Shown: positions 17,660 through 33,107, numbered from the stretch's first letter. The stretch is 64,000 nucleotides of DNA from Flavobacteriales bacterium (GCA_049616325.1 JBMZHG010000006.1:3846-67845); one strand, 5' to 3'. The notes: a model not told the origin generated them from the sequence alone. Translations and numbers: made by a program.

Positions 17660-17913
17660 GGGACGCAGAATGGAAAAAAGTCAAACCAATTTGAAAACAG
17701 CACGCGTTGACACATGCGAAATCCATGCCAAAGATGGCGTCTATCAACACGTCGATACGGGGTTTGGGGTGAAGTTCACCACCCCTGCGTTGTTGGAAAC
17801 TCCCTAGAGAGCGCGAATCTCCGCCTTGCTTCACGTATCTTTTGAATCGGATGCAACGAACGAGGCGCATTCGACGACCTGAACCTGATTGTTCTGCAAC
17901 CAAATCTGACCGC

Positions 17914-20253
17914 ATGACCAAAAACTCGATACTCCTTCCTGCCTTGGGCGCTCTGGCGCTGATGTTGGGCCTGCAACTCACCGCCGTGGCCCAGTGTGCG
18001 GACGGCGAAACCGAAGTGGTGGTGGAAATCCTCACGGACAACTACCCCGGTGAAATCACCTGGACGCTTTCGGACGCCAACGGCGTGCTTTTGTCGGGAG
18101 GCCCTTACAGTTCGAACGGCACAACGTACACCGACGCGGTGTGCATCGACAGCGCGGTGGAGTTTCCGTGCCTGCAATTCGTCATCAACGACTCCTACGG
18201 CGACGGCATTTGTTGCGGATACGGCCAAGGTGCGTACACGCTGTACCTCGGCGGCGTAGCCGTGGCCACAGGCGGAAACTACGGGCAGCAAGACATCGTG
18301 CAGTTCGATTGCGCTCCTGGCGCGACGTGCAACGACGCGTTGGCGTTGACCGAGGCCGATTACGGGACGGTGACGCAGTCGTCCGACAACTTTTGGTACA
18401 CGTTTACCCCTCCTGCCAACGGCATGTACACGTTCAGCTCTTGCGGTGCGGCCTGCAACACGACGTTGTACGTCTACGATTACTGCAACATGGGCAACTT
18501 CGACGACACCAACGAGGGATCGATCTACTACGACGACAACCAAGGGGGATGCGGTGAAGAGGCGACGTTGACCATGCTTCTGGAGGGCAACACGCAGTAT
18601 TGGATCCGCTTGGCGTCCAACGACGGAAGCTGTGGAGGATTCGATTGGGTGTTTGATTACGCCGGACCTCCCACGGGATGCACCGATTCCTCGGCGTGCA
18701 ACTACAACCCTTATGCGGAAGTGGACGACGAGTCGTGCGTGTACGAGGGAGACCCTTTGTGCACGGGGCCAGATTTGGTGGTGCTCGCAAGCGCCATCAC
18801 CAGCAGCCTTCAAACGGCCACAATGAACGTCAGCGAAACCGACTGCTACATCGAGGAGGGCTGCCTTAACGGGTTTGGGTCACGGCAGCTCATTCGCTTT
18901 ACGACGCACATCAAGAACATCGGTGAGCTCGACTACTACATTGGCACCACGAGCCAAAACAACACCACCCAGCAATTTGAATGGGGAGCCTGCCACAACC
19001 ACTGGCACTACAAGGGGTATGCGAAGTACGACCTCTTTACCATGGACGGCGGCCTCATCCCGATTGGGTTCAAAAACGGCTTTTGCGTGATGGACTTGGA
19101 ATGCAGCGGAGGCGGCTCTTTCACCTACGGGTGCGGCAACATGGGCATCTCAGCCGGGTGCGGCGACATTTATTCCAGTGGCCTTAGTTGCCAGTGGATT
19201 GACGTTACCGACGTGGAGGACGGGCAGTACCGCTTGGTGGTGCGCGTTAACTGGGATTACGATCCGGACGCGTTGGGCCGGTACGAGACCAACACGGAAA
19301 ACAACTGGGCCGTGGTGTGCATCGAGATTGACCGCAGCAACGGTTTCGCGGTGAACATCATCACGGATTGCCCGACGTTCACGGATTGCAGCGGCACGCC
19401 CTTCGGAACGGCCTTGATTGATTGCAACGGCGAATGCGGCGGGGTGGCCATGGTGGGCGACCTCAACGACGATTTGTTGCAGGACCTCAACGATGCCCAG
19501 GCGTACGTAGAAGGCGTGCTTGGCGGCGACCTCACGCCTGCCCCGTGCAACGACATCAACGGCGACGGAAGCATCTCGCTCGCGGACGCCGCATTCATGG
19601 CGGACTGCCAGTTTTGGAACGAGGCGCACACGCACCCAGACAGCTCGGGCGTTCACAGCCACTGCGAGTTCCCAGTGAACGACATCACCAACCCGTTTGA
19701 CACCACGCACTTCACGATTGCAAGCGTCGACTGGGACAACCAGTACTTTGACGTGCACGTGAAAAACCCAGATGCCCGCATCTACGGTTACCAGTTGCAG
19801 TTTGACGGAGTTGCAATCAGCCAAACCGAAAGCCTCCTCGACCCCGCGGAGGGCTACACAGGCACGCCGTCCCACGCACCGGGAGGCAACCAGGTGGTGA
19901 CGCTCGGTTACGACGGCATGACCGTGCCGAAGCACACGGAGTACGTGCCGCTGCTGCGCGTTCACTGGATCGGCAACGCCAACGGCATGGTTTGCATTTC
20001 AGGGGACCACGAAGTGATGAACGACTACCTCCAAAAGACGCTTCTCAACCTCGACAACCCCTGCCAAGAACAGACCACCCAGGCCTGCCCAGGCGACATG
20101 GACGGCGACGGCGTGGTGACGGTGTCGGACATCCTTGACGTGTTGAGCGAATTCGGCTGCGTCGAAGGCTGTGCAATGGACATCAACGGCGACGGGTCTG
20201 TCAACGTGACGGACGTGCTGGCGGTTCTCTCCGCGTTCGGCACGGCCTGCTGA
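17914..20253 (+). CDS. secreted multi-module protein: Cys-rich modules + lysyl-oxidase-like catalytic domain + cohesin-like module + dockerin-like repeats
   Basis: Signal peptide 'MTKNSILLPALGALALMLGLQLTAVAQ'. LOX motifs are listed in the sub-feature and findings. C-terminal 'DMDGDGVVTVSDILDVLSEFG' and 'DINGDGSVNVTDVLAVLSAFG'. An alternative start at ATG 17851 lies 7 nt after the box TATCTTTT (17836-17843). Confidence 0.85.
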   Translation: MTKNSILLPALGALALMLGLQLTAVAQCADGETEVVVEILTDNYPGEITWTLSDANGVLLSGGPYSSNGTTYTDAVCIDSAVEFPCLQFVINDSYGDGICCGYGQGAYTLYLGGVAVATGGNYGQQDIVQFDCAPGATCNDALALTEADYGTVTQSSDNFWYTFTPPANGMYTFSSCGAACNTTLYVYDYCNMGNFDDTNEGSIYYDDNQGGCGEEATLTMLLEGNTQYWIRLASNDGSCGGFDWVFDYAGPPTGCTDSSACNYNPYAEVDDESCVYEGDPLCTGPDLVVLASAITSSLQTATMNVSETDCYIEEGCLNGFGSRQLIRFTTHIKNIGELDYYIGTTSQNNTTQQFEWGACHNHWHYKGYAKYDLFTMDGGLIPIGFKNGFCVMDLECSGGGSFTYGCGNMGISAGCGDIYSSGLSCQWIDVTDVEDGQYRLVVRVNWDYDPDALGRYETNTENNWAVVCIEIDRSNGFAVNIITDCPTFTDCSGTPFGTALIDCNGECGGVAMVGDLNDDLLQDLNDAQAYVEGVLGGDLTPAPCNDINGDGSISLADAAFMADCQFWNEAHTHPDSSGVHSHCEFPVNDITNPFDTTHFTIASVDWDNQYFDVHVKNPDARIYGYQLQFDGVAISQTESLLDPAEGYTGTPSHAPGGNQVVTLGYDGMTVPKHTEYVPLLRVHWIGNANGMVCISGDHEVMNDYLQKTLLNLDNPCQEQTTQACPGDMDGDGVVTVSDILDVLSEFGCVEGCAMDINGDGSVNVTDVLAVLSAFGTAC
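18766..19341 (+). other. lysyl oxidase (LOX, PF01186-like) catalytic domain
   Basis: 'PDLV', 'RQLIRFTTHIKNIGELDY', 'WGACHNHWHYKGY', 'GFKNGFCVMDLEC', 'GCGDIYSSGLSCQWIDVTDVEDGQYRLVVRVN' match human LOX as recalled from memory: 'PDLV', 'RVLLRFPQRVKNQGTSDF', 'WHSCHQHYH', 'GHKASFCLEDTSC', '[32 protein letters not shown]'. Confidence 0.75.
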
Positions 20254-22088: not shown

Positions 22089-22280
22089 TCAGTCGCAAGC
22101 CTCACCGAACACGGAAAGCAGCATGAGCAAGTCGGAGGTTTCCACCAACCCTGACTCGTTCAAGTCGCCGAGGCACATGTCTCCTCCAAGGCTGTTGCCA
22201 TCGCAATCCATCCCGAGAGCGGGGAACAAGCACGATCCGTCGTCGTCCTCTGCCCACGTTTCAAGGGCGCCAAACCGCGG
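22089..22280 (-). pseudogene. out-of-frame dockerin-like coding remnant just downstream of the BNR gene; a possible frameshifted C-terminus
   Basis: My own translation of the minus strand: 'PRFGALETWAEDDDGSCLFPALGMDCDGNSLGGDMCLGDLNESGLVETSDLLMLLSVFGEACD*' (stop at 22089-22091). The frame opens at 22280, overlapping the last codons of the BNR ORF in another frame. Confidence 0.4.
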
Positions 22281-23487
22281 TCATGACATGGGGAGACGGC
22301 CGAGGGTTGGTCCATGCCAACAGGACACCCTCATCCAAGCCCGTGAGGGCCGGAAAGCCCCCGGCCCGCTGTTCGCTTGCGGCCACGAGAATCTCAGGGC
22401 CCATTCGCACCGGATTTCCGAAGTTGTCCCAGTGCATGCCCACCCAATCGACCCCTCCGGTGGAATTGGCTTGAAGCCAGACGCTGTAGAAATGCCCGCG
22501 GCCGTCCACCGCGACATCCACACGGCCGAGTGGGTCAAAGGTGTGCTGTGTCGTGGGTTCATCGAACGAAGCCGCCCCGGCCTCCCGCCACGCTGCCAGG
22601 ATTCGTGGCTCGTTGTTCGCAGCGGTGTACCACGAGGCTAAAAATCGTTGCCCGTTGCCCACCAAAGCCGCGCCGTTGACGGGGCAACCGGCAATTTCCC
22701 AACCGTCGCGGTGCAGGGTTCCCAACGACGCCCAAGTCCCGGCAGAGGCGTCGATGTTCATCCGGCTGAAATCACGGATTTCCCCGGGCTCCCGGTCCCG
22801 GTAGATCAGCTCGTACTCGGTGTCCGAGGTCGGGGCGACGGTCACGGGACAACACGTGCAAGCCGAGGAATCGAGAACCACCTCTGTTTGCCACGAATCG
22901 CCTTGAGGCCAACAGTTCATGCGAACCTCCATGCGCGCCTGCGAGGGGTCGGGGTGCCCATCGAAGTCGCGGCCATCGAGCCAAACCAAGCAGGCACCCT
23001 GTTCCGTCGGAAGCCACTTGGCGAATCCATGTTCAGCCACAGCAGTGTCGTTGTGAGGCCGTGTTGGATTGGACCAGGTTCGTCCGCCATCCTCGCTGCG
23101 GACCGTGGAGATGGAATACACAAAGTCACCCCGGTCGTCCAGGGTAAGCCAGTGGCCGAAGGCCTGGCCGTCCCGTCCAAAAGCAAGTTGCGGTCGGTCC
23201 GCCCAGTTGACGAGCATGGACGTGTCGGTGCCGACCGTGGCCAAATTCTCCCAACCGTTGCCGGACCACGTCATGCATTGAAAGGCGTGGGTGCGCCCCC
23301 CTGATTCGTCGATTTGGACGAACGCGAGGACGGGTTGGCTGTCAGGACCCGCCAACAATTGGGGCACCTGGGTTCCCGCAGGGAGGGTGCAAAGTTGTGT
23401 GAGCGGAGTGTCGGCCTCCCGGCATCCGCACAAAACCGCAACCCAAACAACCAGACAGGTTCGCCTCGTCATGGTGGAGCATGTCAT
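22261..23487 (-). CDS. BNR/Asp-box repeat (sialidase-fold) lipoprotein
   Basis: Asp-box 'SEDGGRTWS'. Lipobox 'VLCGC'. ATG 23487 has the box TACCTTGC 6 nt upstream. ATG 23472 is an alternative start. Confidence 0.75.
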   Translation of the reverse strand: MTCSTMTRRTCLVVWVAVLCGCREADTPLTQLCTLPAGTQVPQLLAGPDSQPVLAFVQIDESGGRTHAFQCMTWSGNGWENLATVGTDTSMLVNWADRPQLAFGRDGQAFGHWLTLDDRGDFVYSISTVRSEDGGRTWSNPTRPHNDTAVAEHGFAKWLPTEQGACLVWLDGRDFDGHPDPSQARMEVRMNCWPQGDSWQTEVVLDSSACTCCPVTVAPTSDTEYELIYRDREPGEIRDFSRMNIDASAGTWASLGTLHRDGWEIAGCPVNGAALVGNGQRFLASWYTAANNEPRILAAWREAGAASFDEPTTQHTFDPLGRVDVAVDGRGHFYSVWLQANSTGGVDWVGMHWDNFGNPVRMGPEILVAASEQRAGGFPALTGLDEGVLLAWTNPRPSPHVMTAVWRP

Positions 23488-23585
23488 CGCCAAGCAAGGT
23501 AGGCCTTGGCAGGGGATGGACGACCGGGCTCAATGAAGGCCTCCATCGAATGGGTTGTGCCCAGTGGATCGGTTCGAGAGAGGCA

Positions 23586-23822: not shown

Positions 23823-24145
23823 AGGGGACGGCTCCGATGTAATTGCCGTTGGGGGGAGCAGCGTAAGCCCACGTTGCGAACACGTCGTCTTCGGCTTGAA
23901 ATTCTCGAACGGTGTCTGGCATTTGAAATGTCGATGATTTTGTCGTCAAGCGTAAGCGCCCAAGGGCAATCCGTGTGACAAAGAGGAGCCTTGCACCTCG
24001 TCAGAACGCCAAATCTTGGGGTTGTCTCCTGACGCGCAACTTGCGTGAAGATGCGTTTGAGGAGGGTGAAAACCTGCTAACGCAGCCCTCCCCAACGACG
24101 ACAGTTGCGAAGGCGACGCTATCTTTCCTTCCAAACCCAACTCCC

Positions 24146-27100
24146 ATGGCCTTACCCAAACCTCACGCTCTCGCGGCATCGATCTTGATGTTGCTGCTTT
24201 CAACTGTGACTACCTGGTCCCAATCTTCGCCGTGTGCCCCTCCCAATTCAAGGGCGTACACGTCGTTCAACAACGTCCGGGCGCTGATTGAAAATCGGGG
24301 CTCGATGTGGCAAGACCGAAAAACGAGCACGGCTAGTTATGAAGTGCCGGCGGGAGAGGGGGTGTCGACGTTTTACGCAGGCTCCTTGTGGCTGGGCGGG
24401 GTTTCCCAGTCAGGGCAATTGGCCGTTGCCGCCAACACGTTTTCGCAGGGCACAGATTTCTATCCGGGCCCCCTGGAGCAGGATGTTTTGCAGGCTGACG
24501 CGCAGCGCTGCCTGGCGTACGACGAAATTTTTCGCATCCGTCGTGCAGACGTGTCGCGCCACATCGCGTACCACGAGGCGGTGGCGGCAGGTACGGCAGA
24601 GGTGGATTTTCCCAACGGCTATGTCACTCCGGAGTCCATTTTGCGGTGGCCCGCACAAGGAAACATGGTTGGCGTGATGGGCCAGCCGTTGGCGCCGTTT
24701 CTGGATGCCAATGGAGACGGCGTTTACACTCCTGAGGAAGGGGACAGCCCTGCCTTTGGAGACGACGGGTGCGACGTCGCTTTTGCGGACGCATTGCACG
24801 GGGACGAGGTGTTGTTTTGGGTGATCAACGACGAAGGGGTTCATCAAGAGTCGCAAGGGGAACCGCTTGGGGTGGAGATTCATTGCCAAGCGTGGGGCTG
24901 GGAAGAGGCGTCGGAGAACCTCAGCAACACAACGTTTTACACGCACAAGGTGATCAACCGGAGCAGCAACACGTACTCGGATTTCTACGCGGGTTGGTGG
25001 GCCGATGCAGATGTAGGAACCGCAACGGATGACTACGTGGGCTGCGACGTGTCCCGAGGCATGGGGTACGCCTTCAACGGGGATGTGATTGACGAAGCCT
25101 CGAGCAGTTCTCTGGGTTACGGCGAGTTTCCTCCCGCCGCCGGACTTGATTTCGTGCTTGGGATGCAAGAAGATCCAGACAATTCAGACAACCCGTTGAC
25201 CGAGGACTACGACGAAGCCTTTTTGAACCAGGGTTTGATGTACGCCGGCGCGGGAACGGGTTTTGGGGACGGCGTGGTGGACAACGAACGCCGCGGGATG
25301 TCGCATTTCGTCTACTACAACAATTCAGGCAACCCCATCAACGGAGAGCCATCCACGGCCGTGCATTTCTACAACTACTTGCAAGCGGTGTGGAAGAACG
25401 GCGCGCCCATGTTGTTCGGAGGAGACGGCGTCAACACTGCACTTGGCGCGTTGGAGGATGTTCTCGCCAATTCAATGTTCGCGGGAGAGTCCGACCCGTT
25501 GTTTTGGTCCACGGGCGGCGTTGACCCCGGCGTTGACCCTTGGACCGAGGTCAGTTCGGGCAACCCGCCAGCCGACCGTCGGTTCGTGATGTCCATGGGC
25601 CCAGCAACGCTGGAGTCTGGAGGGAGCAAGGATTTCACCATGGCGACGCTTTGGGCCAGGGACACTACGGAAGTCGATGCAAGCGTGGCGGCGCTCGAAG
25701 CAGTCTCGGACGAAGTCCAGCAACTGTTTGACAGTTGCTTTGAGGGCATGGGGTGCATGGACCCGACGGCGACCAACTACGATCCTGACGCGGTGCTGAG
25801 CACACCTGGCGCGTGCGTCCCCTACGAGTACGGATGTGGAACGATGGAAGCGGCCATGTGGGAGGCCCAAGGCTGGGACATTCAGTTCGCGGAAGCGCTG
25901 GTGGAGCTGGAATTTGGCAATGCGCCCGAGGAGTTCCACTTGGTGGTTTCCTCGGAGTCGCAGGGCTTTGCGGTGAATCACATCCAATTGACAGACGCTC
26001 AGGGCCTTCCCAACGGGCTGTCCTACGCTTCAGCCGACGTGTATGAATCGGGCGTGATTCATTGCGTCCTGCTCGAGGGCGCGCCTCTGGAAACGGGCGT
26101 GTATGAAACCACGTGGGAGGCTTTGGTGTCGGGCAACGAAGGGGAGGAGGCCACGGTTGAGTTGGGGCTGACTTTGGTTGTTGCCGCCAAACCACATGGT
26201 GGAGCGCTGGATGGGTTGGCGAGTTACCCGGTGACCAAGAGAGAGGGTCGGGGTTCCGGGTTGCGCAGGCTTCAATTGACGGAAGAATCGGAGCAGGTTC
26301 TGTTGAACAGTCCCAACGGCCGTGCGGATGAGGTGACCTACCGGCCTGGGTTGGGGCCGATTGACGTGTATGCGCTCCCCGGGTTTTACGATTCAGCGGA
26401 CTACACGGTGGCGTTCACGTCGCTCGACGATTTGCTGGCGTTGCCTTACACGATCACCAACGAAACCACGGGAGAATCGCTGAACAACGTCTTTACCGTG
26501 GAATCGGACATGCATCTCTATGCGCAGTGGGGAATTGCATTGGGCATGGACGTGTTGGAGTACCCTTCGTCGGCCGACGCGCCCCTGTACATCCATTCGA
26601 GGGTGGTGCATCCGGATTCGGCTCAATGGTATTCTGGGCACCCCGACACCGAGGGATTTTCAGACAACAACTGGATTCGCTCGGGCATCCGGGACAGCGG
26701 GCAAGAATTTGAGTATCTCTTCAATGACCTCACGGACTGCGAGGAGGTCTACGAAACAGCGCTGGGCGGCACGTGGGCGCCTTATGCCGTCGCCGCGTAC
26801 ACGGACGACAATGTCTTCTATCCATTTACGGGAGAGACCCTTGGACAATGGCCTCTTGTCGCGCCGACCAAAGCGAGTTTGCGGATGCTGCCCGGGTTCA
26901 ACAAACCCACTGCAACCACCAGCGTGTCGGTTGTGTTCACGTCGGACAAAACCAAATGGACGCGCTCTCCTGTGCTGGAAATGCAACCTTATCCGGAGTT
27001 GGCTGAAAACGATTTGGGCTTGGAAATGGAAAAGATGTTTCTTCGCAGCCACGCGTCGGTGGACAAGAATGGACTGACTCAGTCTGAGGGGGGGAATGCA

Positions 27101-27907
27101 TCGGAGTGCACGCTTGTGAGTGGAACGGGGATGGGGTGGTTTCCGGGGTACGCGATTGACACCCAAACCGGCGAGCGGTTGAACATTGCGTTTGGCGAGG
27201 ATTCGTGGTTGGTTACTGAGAATGGCGACGACATGCGGTTCAACCCTGGCTCATCGAGTTACAGTCCGGGTCCGGTTGGTGTCTTTCATGCTGGAGGACA
27301 GCATTGGATTTACGTGTTTAAAAACGGCCGACATTACACAGGGGCGTCAAACAGAATGCCGTCCTACGACCAAGGCGAATTCATTGTCGACCAACTTTTG
27401 AACCCTTCTATTTCAAACCAGAGAAGGGTGTTCAGGGACTGCGCTTGGGTAGGCTCGACCAAGACAGTCGAGAATTTTGATTGGTCTGCGGAGTTTGGGA
27501 CCACACGCATTCAGTTGGATGCACCGCTGCCGATGATGGCCTACTCGCCCTCTGTCATAGATGTTGAGGACACGGGCTTCTCTGAGAACGACTGGCAGCC
27601 GTTGTATGCCTTTTCGACGTTTGACGAAGCGTCCCAAGTGGAGGACGTGGCTTCCTCAGCTGAGTTGGGCATGAAGGTGTTTCCCAACCCGGTTAGCAAT
27701 CGGCTGACGTTGGAGATTCCGATGAACGCGTGCGCAGAACGCGCGCGGCTGTTCAGCATTCACGGTCAAGTCGTGCATGAGGTTGAGTTTTCTGAGGAAC
27801 AGGGTTGGAAGCAGGTCGACGTGTCTGGCGTTCCAAACGGGACCTACGTGTTGGTGGTGGAATTCACTGACCACATGCGTGCCGCGCACGTGGTGGTCCA
27901 GCGCTGA
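24146..27907 (+). CDS. large secreted protein of unknown function with T9SS type-A C-terminal sorting domain
   Basis: Signal peptide 'MALPKPHALAASILMLLLSTVTTWSQ'. 1253 aa. C-terminus 'KVFPNPVSNRLTLEI....ARLFSIHGQVVHEV.......VDVSGVPNGTYVLVVEF'. I recognise no catalytic motif. Confidence 0.85.
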   Translation: MALPKPHALAASILMLLLSTVTTWSQSSPCAPPNSRAYTSFNNVRALIENRGSMWQDRKTSTASYEVPAGEGVSTFYAGSLWLGGVSQSGQLAVAANTFSQGTDFYPGPLEQDVLQADAQRCLAYDEIFRIRRADVSRHIAYHEAVAAGTAEVDFPNGYVTPESILRWPAQGNMVGVMGQPLAPFLDANGDGVYTPEEGDSPAFGDDGCDVAFADALHGDEVLFWVINDEGVHQESQGEPLGVEIHCQAWGWEEASENLSNTTFYTHKVINRSSNTYSDFYAGWWADADVGTATDDYVGCDVSRGMGYAFNGDVIDEASSSSLGYGEFPPAAGLDFVLGMQEDPDNSDNPLTEDYDEAFLNQGLMYAGAGTGFGDGVVDNERRGMSHFVYYNNSGNPINGEPSTAVHFYNYLQAVWKNGAPMLFGGDGVNTALGALEDVLANSMFAGESDPLFWSTGGVDPGVDPWTEVSSGNPPADRRFVMSMGPATLESGGSKDFTMATLWARDTTEVDASVAALEAVSDEVQQLFDSCFEGMGCMDPTATNYDPDAVLSTPGACVPYEYGCGTMEAAMWEAQGWDIQFAEALVELEFGNAPEEFHLVVSSESQGFAVNHIQLTDAQGLPNGLSYASADVYESGVIHCVLLEGAPLETGVYETTWEALVSGNEGEEATVELGLTLVVAAKPHGGALDGLASYPVTKREGRGSGLRRLQLTEESEQVLLNSPNGRADEVTYRPGLGPIDVYALPGFYDSADYTVAFTSLDDLLALPYTITNETTGESLNNVFTVESDMHLYAQWGIALGMDVLEYPSSADAPLYIHSRVVHPDSAQWYSGHPDTEGFSDNNWIRSGIRDSGQEFEYLFNDLTDCEEVYETALGGTWAPYAVAAYTDDNVFYPFTGETLGQWPLVAPTKASLRMLPGFNKPTATTSVSVVFTSDKTKWTRSPVLEMQPYPELAENDLGLEMEKMFLRSHASVDKNGLTQSEGGNASECTLVSGTGMGWFPGYAIDTQTGERLNIAFGEDSWLVTENGDDMRFNPGSSSYSPGPVGVFHAGGQHWIYVFKNGRHYTGASNRMPSYDQGEFIVDQLLNPSISNQRRVFRDCAWVGSTKTVENFDWSAEFGTTRIQLDAPLPMMAYSPSVIDVEDTGFSENDWQPLYAFSTFDEASQVEDVASSAELGMKVFPNPVSNRLTLEIPMNACAERARLFSIHGQVVHEVEFSEEQGWKQVDVSGVPNGTYVLVVEFTDHMRAAHVVVQR

Positions 27908-28004
27908 CGCTGTTCATGAGTTGAGGTGGGGTTGTGGATTCTTGGGGCGCTGCATATGAATTCAAACAGGTTGGCCGTATCTTATGTGTTCCAAACTCAT
28001 TTTG

Positions 28005-30284
28005 ATGAACCGCTTCTTCACACTTCTCTTTGCTGCTTCTTGCTTGGCTGCTGTTGGGCAGGTGACGTACCCGTACAATCCTGACGGCAATGCCGACGGT
28101 GACATCGCTGTTGGTGACTTGCAAGAATTCCTTGGGGCGTATGGAAATCCGTTCTCCCCGTCAGAGATCATGGTGGGGGATAGTTCGTTGACGAACTGGG
28201 TAGAACAGCTTTCTCAAACGATTCTAGACTTACAAAATCAGATTGCTGAACTTACCTCGAACACTGGTGCAATGCGCTGGGGTTGCACAGATGGCCTCGC
28301 TACAAATTTTGATCCAAATGCGGTAATTGATGTTGGCTCGTGCGATTACCTGGAAATTGGTGATTTCCACGAAGGTGGTATCATCTTTTATTTGGACGGC
28401 AACGGTGGCGGGCTAGTGGCTGCGACACAAGATGAAAGCACTCCCATTTCGCCATATGGTTGGACGTGGGGTTGTATTTACGACGATGTGCCAGGGGCGG
28501 ACGGAACAGCCATCGGTACAGGCTATCAAAACACAATGGACATTGTAAATGCGGGTTGTGAAAACGGCGCTGCGAATTATTGCGCGGATCTAGTTTTGAA
28601 TGGATATGACGACTGGTATCTTCCGTCATCAGGGGAGCTGACTCAGATGTACCTCAACATTGGGGGAGCTAACTCCTATGGCCTTGGGAATATTGGCTTT
28701 TTTCAGACCTATTCTATGTGGACGAGTGATTTTTCGGAGTACTGGAGTTCAACGGAGTCGTCAGAAGACCAAGATTTTGCATACTACGTTGACGTTATTC
28801 AAAACTTGACAGGTGGAGCTAGCCATGGCCAAAAGTCAGCCACGAAGAATGCACGTGCCATTCGGTCTTTTGTATTAACAGGGTGCTCTGATGACACTGC
28901 GTGCAACTACAATCCCGCAGCAATTGAAGATGGCCCTTGTTCCTACACAGGGGATAGTTGCGATGATGGCAACAGTGGAACAGCAGACGATTCTTGGAGT
29001 AGCGCCTGCGTTTGTGAAGGGGTTGAGGCAGTCTACGGTTGTCTCGATGACACGGCATGCAACTACAGCACAATCGCAAACACTGACGATGGCTCATGCA
29101 ACTTTGATTGCTATGGGTGCTTAGATTCCACGGCGTGCAACTACGACTCAACGGCTACTGAAGAAAATGGTTCTTGTGAATTCACTTCGTGTGCTGGTTG
29201 TACAGACGATGCGGCGTGCAACTACGATGCGAATGTTACAATCGACGATGGCTCATGCTCTTTTGGCGGAGATGGTTGTGACGATGGCAACAGTGAAACT
29301 GTAAACGATTCTTGGAATAGCGCCTGTGTTTGTGAAGGGGTTGAAGTACCTGGCTGTGCTGATGAGACAGCATGCAACTATGACGAGACAGCGTCAGTTG
29401 ACGATGGTTCTTGCCAGTACGCCGAGGAATTTTATGATTGCAATGGAGACTGCCTCAATGACGCTGACGGAGACAGCGTATGCGATGAACTTGAGGTGCC
29501 CGGTTGTACCGATGAGACGGCGTGCAACTACGATGAGACAGCGACAGATGACGATGGCTCATGCTATTTTGGCGGAGATAGTTGTGATGACAACAATTAT
29601 TCTACGACAAACGACACCTGGAGCAACGCTTGTGTTTGTGAAGGAACCAGCCTGACCGGATGTTCCAGTTCTGATTTTGTTGAATACAGTGGCCATAGCT
29701 ATGCCGTCATTACAATAGGGAATCAGTGTTGGTTTGCTGAGAACTGTCGCTATTTGCCCGAAGTTTCCCCTCCAAGTGAAGGCGGTGATTCCAGCCCCCA
29801 CTACTATGTCTACGACTACGAAGGCTCTGATTTAGGAGAAGCCAAATCAACCTCAAACTATGAGACGTACGGCGTTCTATACAACTGGCCGGCAGTGATG
29901 ACTGACAGCATTTGTCCAAGCGGTTGGCACGTCCCGTCAGATGATGAGTTCACGCAATTAACGGATTACTTGGGAGGCGAAAATGGAGCGGGAGGCAAGA
30001 TGAAAGAAGCTGGCTTTGATCATTGGAACTCGCCAAACACAGGCGCGACCAACTCAAGTGGCTGGACGGGTTTGCCCGGCGGCTCCCGGTTCGATGGCGG
30101 TGGAGGCTTCTTCTGGACCGCGGGAGACGAGGGGTTGTGGTGGAGTTCCTCGGCCGATCCATGGGAAACATCCACCGCACATGCCCGGAGACTGCTCAAT
30201 AACAGCGAGGATATCACCGACCCAACGGACACTTACGCCAAAAACAAAGGCTTTTCTGTTCGTTGTGTCCGGGATGCCGAGTGA
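28005..30284 (+). CDS. secreted DUF1566 (Lcl-like) + Cys-rich 'ACNY' repeat + FISUMP (Fibrobacter succinogenes major paralogous) domain protein
   Basis: Signal 'MNRFFTLLFAASCLAAVGQ'. DUF1566-like 'GGIIFYLD....GLVAA..D......W', 'GYDDWYLPSSGELTQMY', 'YWSSTE'. FISUMP-like 'IGNQCWFAENCRY', 'YGVLYNW.A', 'CPSGWHVPSDDEF..L', 'GFSVRCVRD'. Confidence 0.85.
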   Translation: MNRFFTLLFAASCLAAVGQVTYPYNPDGNADGDIAVGDLQEFLGAYGNPFSPSEIMVGDSSLTNWVEQLSQTILDLQNQIAELTSNTGAMRWGCTDGLATNFDPNAVIDVGSCDYLEIGDFHEGGIIFYLDGNGGGLVAATQDESTPISPYGWTWGCIYDDVPGADGTAIGTGYQNTMDIVNAGCENGAANYCADLVLNGYDDWYLPSSGELTQMYLNIGGANSYGLGNIGFFQTYSMWTSDFSEYWSSTESSEDQDFAYYVDVIQNLTGGASHGQKSATKNARAIRSFVLTGCSDDTACNYNPAAIEDGPCSYTGDSCDDGNSGTADDSWSSACVCEGVEAVYGCLDDTACNYSTIANTDDGSCNFDCYGCLDSTACNYDSTATEENGSCEFTSCAGCTDDAACNYDANVTIDDGSCSFGGDGCDDGNSETVNDSWNSACVCEGVEVPGCADETACNYDETASVDDGSCQYAEEFYDCNGDCLNDADGDSVCDELEVPGCTDETACNYDETATDDDGSCYFGGDSCDDNNYSTTNDTWSNACVCEGTSLTGCSSSDFVEYSGHSYAVITIGNQCWFAENCRYLPEVSPPSEGGDSSPHYYVYDYEGSDLGEAKSTSNYETYGVLYNWPAVMTDSICPSGWHVPSDDEFTQLTDYLGGENGAGGKMKEAGFDHWNSPNTGATNSSGWTGLPGGSRFDGGGGFFWTAGDEGLWWSSSADPWETSTAHARRLLNNSEDITDPTDTYAKNKGFSVRCVRDAE
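28881..29663 (+). repeat. intragenic tandem array of Cys-rich modules (about 7 'C.D..ACNY....A..DDGSC.F' units and 3 'GD.CDDGNS.T.(D/N)DSW(S/N)SACVCEG' units)
   Basis: The repeats are visible at DNA level. 'gacgatggctcatgc' occurs three times (about 29088, 29241, 29549). 28963-29030 and 29281-29347 are clearly similar, as are 29357-29394 and 29508-29545. Confidence 0.8.
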
Positions 30285-32081: not shown

Positions 32082-33107
32082 TCAGTTGCAGGCTTGGTCG
32101 TACTCCATGAAGTCCAAGTTGAACAGGGTCGGGTCGACGTTGCCAACGCTGGCCGGGCTGATGTCAATCAGGACGCCGTCGGAGGGGTCGAGGTGCTCCG
32201 ACCAGCGCAGCACCATGCCGTGGCCCCAGACGTAGGGGTCGTCGATGCCTTGGGCGTTGTTCAGGTCGATGAGCGGGGGCTCGCCTTGGTCCACCCAAAC
32301 CGGATACGGCCATCCGTCGGGCGCGAAATGCAGCGACTTGACGCTGTCCGGCAACCCAAAGGGCACTACGCTTCCCCACTCAGGACTCAGAAAAGGCGGC
32401 GTCTCCGACTCGGGGATGCCACTCTGCCCCACAAACGTGCTCAGGCTGATGCTTTGCCAGTGGTTGGGCTGCACGAGCATGGGGTTGCCCGGCACCGATT
32501 CGATGAACAGGTCCGGGTTGAGCGGCGTGTAATGTTGGTTGGCGTAGTCGTTGGCCTCGTTGCTTCCGTCCACCGCGCCTTGGGCCAAAACCTGTTGCGC
32601 GATGTAATTCCCCAACGCCGCGGGCCCGTCGTTGACGTAGTCGGTGCTTTGAAAGCTGTTCACGCCTCCGTTCAGGGCGAATTGTTGGTACAGGCTCATC
32701 AACGTGGCTGTTCCGCCCGGCGAATTCAAGAACCGGTTCCACAGGATGCGGTAGGAGGCATAATTGATGGCTTCTTCCTGGGCCCAGCGCCGCTCGACGG
32801 GGTCCTCGATGGCCGCAACGTTGACGTCGACCCAAAACGGCTCGGCAAGTGTGTCGTACGCCGCCCAGGCGTCGTAGCAGGCGGCGGACCAATGGTGGAG
32901 GTTGCGGGCGTGCACCGTGGGCCTCGCCAAATCGCTTCGGATGGCGTCCAACATCACCTCGTTCCACTCGCGCACCAGGCTCTGTTGTGCCCAGGAAGCC
33001 GATCCTGAAACCAACCCCGCAACCAACACAAGCAGCAGCCCAACAACGGCCCGGGCGGGCAGAAGCTTCGGGGTCGGATGGACGAGAGTGTCGGCGAGTG
33101 AGCTCAT
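32082..33107 (-). CDS. secreted protein resembling the N-terminal (DUF6851-like) part of vanadium-haloperoxidase/PAP2-family proteins; no PAP2 domain present
   Basis: 'REWNEVMLDAIR....PTVHARNL...SAACYDAWAAYD' resembles the N-terminal region of bacterial haloperoxidase-like proteins as I recall them. The ORF stops 55 nt from the purS 3' end. Confidence 0.55.
   Translation of the reverse strand: MSSLADTLVHPTPKLLPARAVVGLLLVLVAGLVSGSASWAQQSLVREWNEVMLDAIRSDLARPTVHARNLHHWSAACYDAWAAYDTLAEPFWVDVNVAAIEDPVERRWAQEEAINYASYRILWNRFLNSPGGTATLMSLYQQFALNGGVNSFQSTDYVNDGPAALGNYIAQQVLAQGAVDGSNEANDYANQHYTPLNPDLFIESVPGNPMLVQPNHWQSISLSTFVGQSGIPESETPPFLSPEWGSVVPFGLPDSVKSLHFAPDGWPYPVWVDQGEPPLIDLNNAQGIDDPYVWGHGMVLRWSEHLDPSDGVLIDISPASVGNVDPTLFNLDFMEYDQACN

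Follow-up and report, generated by a model that had tools for sequence, protein, structure and literature searches.

Lysyl oxidases (LOX) are known almost wholly as animal matrix cross-linkers, and the locus described here raises the question of what such an enzyme, embedded in a large multi-module protein, would do in a bacterium. The gene lies on a 64,000-nucleotide stretch of DNA from a Flavobacteriales bacterium (GCA_049616325.1, JBMZHG010000006.1:3846-67845), which we call the window throughout. What LOX does in bacteria was raised as a question in 2015, and experiments so far concern one archaeal enzyme. Drawing on profile searches, predicted structures and comparison with related loci, we consider it likely that the gene encodes a Sec-exported multi-module LOX-family enzyme, tethered at the surface by its C-terminal tail and releasing aldehyde, NH3 and H2O2. 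An earlier note, made from the window's sequence alone, had proposed a LOX-like domain inside a secreted multi-module protein, and we return to its individual claims where the evidence bears on them.

The catalytic domain and its occurrence

The gene sits in an open reading frame (ORF) listed mechanically at 17842..20253 (+). The frame is intact, and we place the start at the ATG at 17914 because the N-termini of orthologues agree, which gives 779 amino acids (aa) and a stop. Two long antisense ORFs (17776-18813 and 19150-19965, minus strand) we judge to be spurious, because such ORFs are expected at about 60% GC; homologues and domain matches are found only in the plus-strand frame. The protein is 97% identical to a copy in a Flavobacteriales metagenome-assembled genome (MAG) from San Francisco Bay.

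Both sequence and predicted structure identify the central part of this protein as a lysyl oxidase. The Pfam profile PF01186 (Lysyl_oxidase) matches aa 287-466 over its positions 2-188 of 204 at E=2.2e-31, and the score of 109.5 bits lies far above the curated gathering threshold of 20.4. When the PDB is searched by sequence, human LOXL2 (5ZE3) is the only strong match (E=2.3e-23 by phmmer with the single sequence, E=1.8e-29 with the family profile), with 35.8% identity over 162 aligned positions in the HMMER alignment. An AlphaFold2 model built on a 67-sequence alignment, in which the LOX domain has a moderate predicted local distance difference test score (pLDDT) of about 60-90, again has LOXL2 as its top Foldseek match in the PDB (5ZE3_A, E=1.2e-13, probability 1.0, 222 aligned columns). 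The catalytic domain is a genuine member of the LOX family, and chance resemblance is far exceeded. All seven sequence blocks that the earlier note had quoted as LOX-like stand where it placed them, from GPDLVV at aa 285-290 (nucleotides (nt) 18766-18783) through NNWAVVCI at aa 463-470 (nt 19300-19323), and the limits it gave for the LOX-like stretch, nt 18766-19341, are exact. LOXL2 serves as the comparison structure; its blocks align exactly at the positions of the human LOX strings that the note had quoted.

In LOXL2, copper is held by H626, H628 and H630, and K653 and Y689 are the precursors of the lysine tyrosylquinone (LTQ) cofactor (PMC5899467). We transferred these and further feature residues from the same paper to the window protein through the HMMER alignment, and followed them in an alignment of 67 family members with identities down to 44%. 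The codons that the earlier note had picked out for the copper ligands and the LTQ pair do encode HNHWH (H361, H363 and H365), K387 and Y420, and all five of these residues are invariant in 67/67 relatives. LOXL2 has five disulfides in its catalytic domain (C573-C625, C579-C695, C657-C673, C663-C685 and C732-C746; PMC5899467). Eight of these cysteines map, in order, to C311/C360, C317/C426, C391/C407 and C397/C416, so that four of the five disulfides are accounted for. The fifth pair, C732-C746, falls outside the alignment; C469 and C486 are invariant in the 67 relatives, and we infer that they are its equivalents. The structural calcium site of LOXL2 is formed by D549, L550, E722, D724, N727 and N728 (PMC5899467), the first two of which map to D287 and L288, both invariant. 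E458, N463 and N464 are likewise invariant and fit the E-x-x-x-x-N-N motif of E722, N727 and N728, but lie beyond the HMMER alignment, and position 460, the equivalent of D724, varies between N, S and D in the family. Because the mapped His, Lys, Tyr and Cys residues and D287 and L288 are all invariant across the relatives, we take the catalytic residues to be under purifying selection.

The domain thus holds the LOXL2 set: the fold, the HxHxH copper site, the Lys/Tyr pair, four mapped disulfides and the aligned calcium-site residues D287/L288. It differs from LOXL2 in its surroundings, since the window protein has no SRCR domains or propeptide and carries beta-sandwich, Cys, dockerin-like, cohesin-fold and tail modules in their place; it also lacks an N-glycan, varies at the D724 position (N/S/D), and belongs to a bacterial host without collagen or elastin.

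How unusual is such a protein? The earlier note had called prokaryotic LOX rare, which is overstated. A search with the LOX domain alone against a library of 1.84 billion cluster representatives returns 3,264 clusters at 50% identity, 1,439 of them at E<=1e-10 and 294 at E<=1e-30. Grau-Bove et al. (2015) already listed Bacteroidetes as one of five bacterial clades with LOX, and NCBI names several of the relatives 'lysyl oxidase family protein'. The LOX domain is known and already annotated, and it is neither rare nor a categorically new system. What is new is the multi-module architecture, which is undescribed in the searchable literature though predominant in sequence databases: the nearest 150 clusters are mostly proteins of roughly 780-810 aa with LOX at about residues 270-470, the layout of the window protein, whereas nearly all prokaryotic LOX in Grau-Bove et al. 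(2015) are LOX-only proteins. The note's remark that no LOX of this architecture had been described holds for the searchable literature, where we found nothing on it or on LOX in flavobacteria, and nothing relevant on a 'GC-type dockerin' or on aquatic cell-surface amine oxidases. The only biochemically characterised prokaryotic LOX in that literature is HTU-LOX of Haloterrigena turkmenica, an active, Cu-dependent amine oxidase that is sensitive to beta-aminopropionitrile and has a relaxed specificity which includes small amines (PMC6452851). HTU-LOX resembles the window protein in being a prokaryotic LOX domain with a signal peptide; it is archaeal, essentially LOX-only and cryptic in its host, whereas the window protein is bacterial, 779 aa long, multi-module and encoded in a conserved chromosomal slot.

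Relatives occur in 79 reference genomes from marine, estuarine and lake samples. Their hosts are nearly all uncultured Flavobacteriales (some labelled Crocinitomicaceae), with Saprospiraceae, Chitinophagales and Cytophagales besides. Three related loci (loci carry the prefix L and proteins the prefix P) have other labels: L020 (contig PBNL01000011.1, protein P0010) is named 'Euryarchaeota' or 'Methanobacteriota archaeon', and L006 and L025 are labelled 'Comamonadaceae'. In all three the LOX gene stands in Flavobacteriales gene order, and they are therefore almost certainly mis-binned and not cases of archaeal or proteobacterial LOX; an archaeal origin for P0010 is rejected on the synteny of its contig.

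Modules around the core and the C-terminal exchange

The window protein begins with a probable Sec signal peptide (coordinates of all modules are collected in Table 1). It has a positive n-region, a hydrophobic h-region modelled as a helix over residues 7-22, and an A-x-A motif followed by Gln (A-V-A, Q-C); Q27 is present in 43/67 relatives and C28 in 64/67. Signal peptidase I substrates of Bacteroidetes follow a 'Q-rule', with Gln at +1 (PMC5837995), and the cleavage context of the window protein fits it. The protein contains 38 cysteines, which imply an oxidising compartment.

Between the signal peptide and the catalytic domain lie two predicted beta-sandwich modules and a short four-Cys module. 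N1 has no Pfam match; it occurs also inside M43 metallopeptidase ORFs of related loci. N2 has sub-threshold matches only, to PF23759 GBD_T9SS_assoc (E=0.0063) and NF041539. Foldseek matches the N-terminal modules to tandem beta-sandwiches, among them the collagen-binding domains of ColG (5IKU, probability 0.99, with a template modelling (TM) score of only 0.29). Generic matches of this kind support the predicted fold class of N2 and not its ligand, and we reject collagen binding because a TM score this low is generic beta-sandwich likeness. The short Cys module also recurs, in two kinds of protein from related loci that are described below, a glucose/sorbosone dehydrogenase (GSDH) and a third LOX.

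The C-terminal side of the core is where the architecture departs furthest from LOXL2. An internal segment at about aa 500-575 weakly resembles a dockerin: the family profile matches the Clostridium thermocellum CelS dockerins 1DAQ and 2MTE at a borderline E=0.013-0.014, D516, D527, D539, D547 and D558 are invariant, and helices are modelled at 525-535 and 556-571 with low pLDDT. The beta-sandwich that follows is matched by Foldseek to cohesins 6KGF_A/C, 6KGE_A and 5NRM_A with probability 1.0 and TM on target of 0.52-0.60; with 2VO8 included, the ranges become 0.99-1.0 and 0.44-0.60. The tail consists of two D-x-D/N-G-D-G loops, each followed by a helix, with conserved cysteines (FGC ... C-terminal C). 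Modelled alone with a tail-specific alignment, it has a core pLDDT of about 90, and its top 26 Foldseek matches are all dockerins (best 2Y3N_B, TM 0.78/0.87, root-mean-square deviation 1.6 A, probability 1.0). The signal peptide, the Cys-rich modules and the cohesin- and dockerin-like modules that the earlier note had listed are therefore all borne out, the last two at the level of fold.

The closest parallel for this combination is the clostridial cellulosome (PF00404/PF00963; 2Y3N, 6KGF), whose dockerin and cohesin folds the models resemble with TM scores of 0.78-0.87 and 0.52-0.60. The differences are considerable: the host is a Gram-negative member of the Bacteroidota, the enzyme is an oxidase and not a glycoside hydrolase, and the likeness is known here from predicted folds, with the sequence models sub-threshold or silent. 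In its conserved Cys the tail also resembles the NCBIfam 'GC-type dockerin', at a sub-threshold score.

Table 1. Positions of the gene, its modules and its catalytic residues in the window, and of the third LOX paralogue in related loci
Feature	Position	Strand	Basis
Complete gene, multi-module secreted lysyl-oxidase-family protein	17914..20253	+	ORF list, full-length orthologues, 97% identical MAG copy, synteny
Probable signal peptide, aa 1-26 (MTKNSILLPALGALALMLGLQLTAVA then QC...), probable signal peptidase I site leaving an N-terminal Gln	17914..17991	+	read from sequence
N1 beta-sandwich module, aa 28-132 (DNYPGEITW ... DSYGDGICCGYG)	17995..18309	+	all-beta in AlphaFold2 model, pLDDT about 80-90
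N2 beta-sandwich / jelly-roll module, aa 133-255	18310..18678	+	AlphaFold2 beta strands
Short Cys module, aa 256-283 (GCTDSSACNYNPYAEVDDESCVYEGDPLC)	18679..18762	+	C256, C262, C275, C283 invariant
Lysyl oxidase catalytic domain, aa 284-475 (Pfam match aa 287-466)	18763..19338	+	PF01186; LOXL2 5ZE3 by sequence and fold
Copper-binding His triad, H361-N-H363-W-H365	18994..19008	+	aligned to LOXL2 H626/H628/H630; invariant 67/67 relatives
K387, LTQ precursor lysine	19072..19074	+	aligned to LOXL2 K653; invariant
Y420, LTQ precursor tyrosine, fourth metal ligand in precursor state	19171..19173	+	aligned to LOXL2 Y689; invariant
Internal dockerin-like segment, aa about 500-575, two D-x-N/D-x-D loops each then helix	19411..19638	+	borderline profile match
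Cohesin-fold beta-sandwich module, aa 585-722	19666..20079	+	AlphaFold2 pLDDT 85-94; Foldseek cohesin matches
C-terminal dockerin-fold tail, aa 725-779, replaces the type IX secretion system C-terminal domain of paralogues	20086..20250	+	near-threshold models; predicted fold
Third LOX paralogue in L030, L031, L034-L037, L039, L041, L043, L045, L046, L049, L051	e.g. L035 18892-21933	-	

The earlier note had also observed that the protein has no C-terminal domain (CTD) of the type IX secretion system (T9SS). This is correct: neither a type A (PF18962/TIGR04183) nor a type B (PF13585) CTD is matched in Pfam or NCBIfam at E<=1, although most relatives carry one, and the paralogue P0020, as a positive comparison, scores 28.2 bits against a cut-off of 23 on TIGR04183. 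Elsewhere in the window a 1,310-aa protein (23975-27907, +) has a T9SS type A CTD as its only recognisable domain, so that the genome uses this system although the LOX gene lacks its signal.

Inspection of the 67 aligned relatives reveals that their tails split cleanly into two classes. Each of the 18 nearest, at 62-93% identity, has the dockerin-fold tail at its end, and almost all of the remainder (44-58% identity) end in a T9SS type A CTD (PF18962/TIGR04183). Paralogues of the second class that are named 'lysyl oxidase family protein' (for example P0020, P0023, P0061 and P0080), at 44-62% identity, share the N1-N2-Cys-LOX-dockerin-like-cohesin-fold layout with the window protein and differ from it in the terminal domain and in the gene block where they lie. 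The dockerin-tailed genes, of which 20 orthologous loci are syntenic with the window gene, occupy a slot of amidohydrolase, glycosyltransferase GT2, RluB-like, UPF0102, coiled-coil protein, LOX and small membrane protein genes. The CTD-type slot reads M43 peptidase, FKBP, YaaD, a hypothetical gene, S46 dipeptidyl-peptidase and LOX, sometimes followed directly by CotH/CHU_C. At 11 loci this follower is a 1,018-aa LTD/CotH/CHU_C protein with a T9SS type B CTD that starts 3 bp past the LOX stop (for example L080 10412-13468 (+)); it may be a co-transcribed surface partner of the T9SS-type LOX. On a neighbour-joining tree of 585 shared columns (no bootstrap), the 19 dockerin-tailed proteins form one clade nested among CTD-bearing forms, and at least one assembly, GCA_002746975.1, holds both a dockerin-tailed and a CTD-type LOX. 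These sequences are most simply explained if the gene was duplicated in a Flavobacteriales lineage and the CTD was afterwards exchanged, once, for a dockerin.

The tail on further secreted-type proteins

Is the tail peculiar to this LOX? We built a hidden Markov model (HMM) from 19 tails and ran it over the window and 1.29 Mb of related loci, taking the ORFs of all six frames. This sample is biased, since every locus was fetched around LOX genes, and our statements on the distribution of modules therefore cover the DNA seen and not whole genomes. A tail-only search of a 5.8-billion-protein database returned only short fragments of the same LOX gene at contig ends.

In the scanned DNA the tail is found on several non-orthologous proteins, always at the extreme C-terminus, with scores on the dockerin models of 19.6-25.7. 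Vanadium-haloperoxidase-like (VHPO-like) proteins composed of PF22778 VCPO_2nd and DUF6851 bear it in L020, L021 and L077. A half-tail closes a pyrroloquinoline quinone (PQQ) dehydrogenase of the GSDH family (PF07995, about 230 bits) that is the immediate upstream neighbour of the orthologous LOX at nine loci: with Cys modules and about 1.5 kb upstream in L003, L006, L008, L016, L018, L019 and L021, and as contig-end fragments in L002 and L007. What stands directly upstream of the LOX gene varies: the window has nothing in this slot, and L004 and L012 have an M43 peptidase that includes an N1-like module. The tail also ends a small 231-aa protein (L017/L013). We considered this protein as a cohesin-like adaptor and rejected it, as BLASTP against the LOX cohesin-fold module gave E=0.075 and the cohesin HMM gave no match. 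The cohesin-fold module and the internal dockerin-like segment are found only in LOX ORFs. Judged from these sequences, the tail is a modular, shared C-terminal tag of secreted-type enzymes.

One more bearer of the tail is a third LOX paralogue (PKD, LOX, cohesin-like module and dockerin tail), about 1,014 aa long and with 36.5% identity to the window protein. At 13 loci of a sister lineage its gene and that of a T9SS-type LOX are on opposite strands, about 9 kb apart, so that the pairing of a CTD-type with a dockerin-type LOX recurs in a second lineage.

Two places in the window are reminiscent of these proteins. An orphan half-tail at 22092-22280 (-) closes a 63-aa stop-to-stop segment (...CLGDLNESGLVETSDLLMLLSVFGEACD*; tail HMM E=4e-5) and lies one frame off the end of the ORF 22261-23493 (-), whose 410 aa match BNR_2 weakly. 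A frameshift, either an assembly error or the mark of a pseudogene, has probably split a second dockerin-tailed secreted protein here. At 32082-33107 (-) a 341-aa DUF6851 ORF shares 55% identity with the N-terminal half of the VHPO-like proteins of L020, L021 and L077; the catalytic VCPO_2nd half and the tail that would partner it were not found in the window.

Mechanism, role and alternatives

From the chemistry of the family we expect that copper loading and oxidation by O2 would let Y420 and K387 self-process to LTQ. With LTQ in place, the enzyme would turn primary amines (peptidyl-lysine, possibly also polyamines and other free amines) into aldehydes by oxidative deamination, and NH3 and H2O2 would be given off. 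Copper amine oxidases with topaquinone (TPQ) and LodA-type enzymes with cysteine tryptophylquinone (CTQ), which likewise act outside cells, have this overall reaction in common with it (primary amine + O2 + H2O -> aldehyde + NH3 + H2O2) and are precedents for nitrogen release and for H2O2-based antagonism. Their folds and cofactors are unrelated, and no likeness to them appears in the Pfam or Foldseek searches of the window protein; LOXL2 likewise has no overall similarity to the copper amine oxidases (PMC5899467). Going by the modelled architecture, the tail would tether the enzyme non-covalently and in a Ca-dependent manner to a surface partner of the cohesin type. The only candidate partner seen so far would be the cohesin-fold module of the T9SS-anchored LOX paralogue in the same genome.

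Among the roles considered, the one that we put foremost, at somewhat less than an even chance, is that the enzyme would oxidise, at the cell surface, lysine or amine groups in proteinaceous organic matter from outside, as part of the acquisition of nitrogen and peptides. We favour it because the paralogue stands in a peptidase-rich gene block, because N1 is shared with an M43 peptidase, and because the archaeal LOX has a relaxed specificity. Cross-linking of the cell's own surface or matrix ranks next, and supply of H2O2 after that.

In the cross-linking account, the leading idea of the earlier note, which had named a matrix, a biofilm or a prey surface as possible targets, the enzyme would convert lysines of the cell's own surface or matrix proteins to allysine, and the resulting covalent cross-links would stiffen a surface layer, a holdfast or the matrix of aggregates, much as animal LOX acts on collagen and elastin. 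We regard this as unlikely, though it has real attractions: the catalytic equipment is identical to that of the cross-linking LOXL2, the modelled protein-protein modules would tether the enzyme and not release it, and each genome has two to three paralogues, with the CotH/CHU_C surface protein 3 bp downstream of the T9SS-type one at 11 loci. Against it, the window gene has no linked gene for a lysine-rich or collagen-like substrate, the host lineages, uncultured and represented by MAGs, are planktonic and have no known matrix, the characterised prokaryotic LOX shows a relaxed and not a matrix specificity, and Grau-Bove et al. judged collagen-like cross-linking in bacteria unlikely. Each LOX turnover also yields one H2O2, by the family's chemistry and in keeping with the H2O2 release assayed for HTU-LOX, and peroxide itself could be the product that matters, directed against competitors or algae or fed to the tail-sharing VHPO-like enzyme to make hypohalous acid. 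LodA, the lysine-epsilon-oxidase of Marinomonas, is a precedent for an antimicrobial amine oxidase that produces H2O2. In L020 and L021 the orthologous LOX gene is followed, 1.3-3.2 kb downstream, by one for a tail-bearing VHPO-like protein, L077 has such a gene too, and the window has a DUF6851 relative; but three loci are all that have this neighbour, the DUF6851 copy in the window has no catalytic half, and a common tail means at most a common localisation, not coupling. We therefore place this role a little lower still.

The remaining alternatives concern location and activity. The protein might work in the periplasm or in outer-membrane vesicles, with a tail that serves folding, Ca binding or periplasmic complexes, and here Pfam and NCBIfam detect no known outer-membrane export signal, while the cleavage context is of the signal peptidase I type with Q at +1 and not a canonical lipobox. 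We think this improbable, since the ancestral and paralogous forms are T9SS cargo, placed at the surface or secreted, the large binding modules were kept intact after the swap, and a tag that recurs at the extreme C-terminus of several secreted-type enzymes resembles a sorting or anchoring function. A catalytically dead binding module or a pseudogene we consider very unlikely indeed, because the reading frame is intact and because no change is seen at any catalytic, disulfide or mapped Ca-site position across 67 relatives with identities as low as 44%; no finding speaks in its favour.

Several points weigh against the surface-tethered, amine-oxidising enzyme that we prefer. The activity, cofactor and location of the whole clade are predicted from sequence and models. 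With neither a T9SS CTD nor a lipobox to account for its passage across the outer membrane, the protein could remain periplasmic. 'Cohesin' and 'dockerin' are fold-level assignments, supported by the predicted folds: for aa 585-722 no cohesin family is found among the Pfam matches even at E<=1 and no PDB cohesin by profile, and the tail falls below threshold both on PF00404 (21.4 bits against 22.9) and on NF041540 dockerin_GC (22.6 bits against 29, matched end-to-end, 1-67 of 67). In view of these near misses we speak of a dockerin-fold tail and not of a certified family member. The internal dockerin-like segment, which lies next to the cohesin-fold module, may already occupy it. The tree that places the dockerin-tailed clade has no bootstrap, and the gene block that the paralogue shares with S46 and M43 peptidases in related genomes is weak functional evidence. 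The neighbours of the window gene itself (amidohydrolase, GT2, RluB-like, UPF0102, coiled-coil protein, small membrane protein and the glycosyltransferase GT1) are housekeeping, opposite-strand or unrelated genes, so that context gives no clue to the substrate; an operon was likewise considered from these flanks and rejected.

A bolder extension, which we rate as a long shot, is that this widespread aquatic Flavobacteriales lineage has a Gram-negative, cellulosome-like docking system for oxidative enzymes, in which the T9SS-anchored LOX would display the cohesin fold and the second LOX, the VHPO-like enzyme, the PQQ dehydrogenase and the M43 peptidase would dock. If true, a producer of H2O2 and aldehyde would stand beside H2O2 consumers and peptidases, for the extracellular oxidation of organic matter or for chemical antagonism, and the dockerin tail would mark a route of surface display independent of the T9SS CTD.

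In common, uncultured Flavobacteriales of fresh, estuarine and marine waters, LOX is then a conserved, duplicated and elaborately targeted exoenzyme with intact catalytic residues, and not a stray horizontally acquired domain. If active at the surface, it would constitute an unrecognised route by which lysine and amine groups in organic nitrogen, whether dissolved or particulate, are oxidised in aquatic systems, with ammonium, reactive aldehydes and H2O2 as products. The swap from T9SS CTD to dockerin, with a tail common to other secreted enzymes, is a testable lead for non-T9SS display and cohesin-dockerin assembly in Bacteroidota. Structural work on the family's unsolved active, LTQ-containing state would likewise profit from a soluble bacterial LOX.

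Further searches of the window add little to the immediate setting of the gene. A tblastn search with the LOX, N1, N2, cohesin-like and tail modules returned self-hits only, so that no second LOX gene was found in the window. A sigma-70 promoter scan gave no sites, which says nothing about the gene's promoter because those of Bacteroidota differ. The short Cys module recurs some kilobases downstream: the ORF 27984-30284 (+), with Fib_succ_major and Lcl_C, contains at least eight tandem copies of it (GCTDxxACNYNPxAxxDDGSCxY; repeats at about 28284-29579), and the region 28001-30000 has a GC content of 49%, against about 60% in the remaining window.

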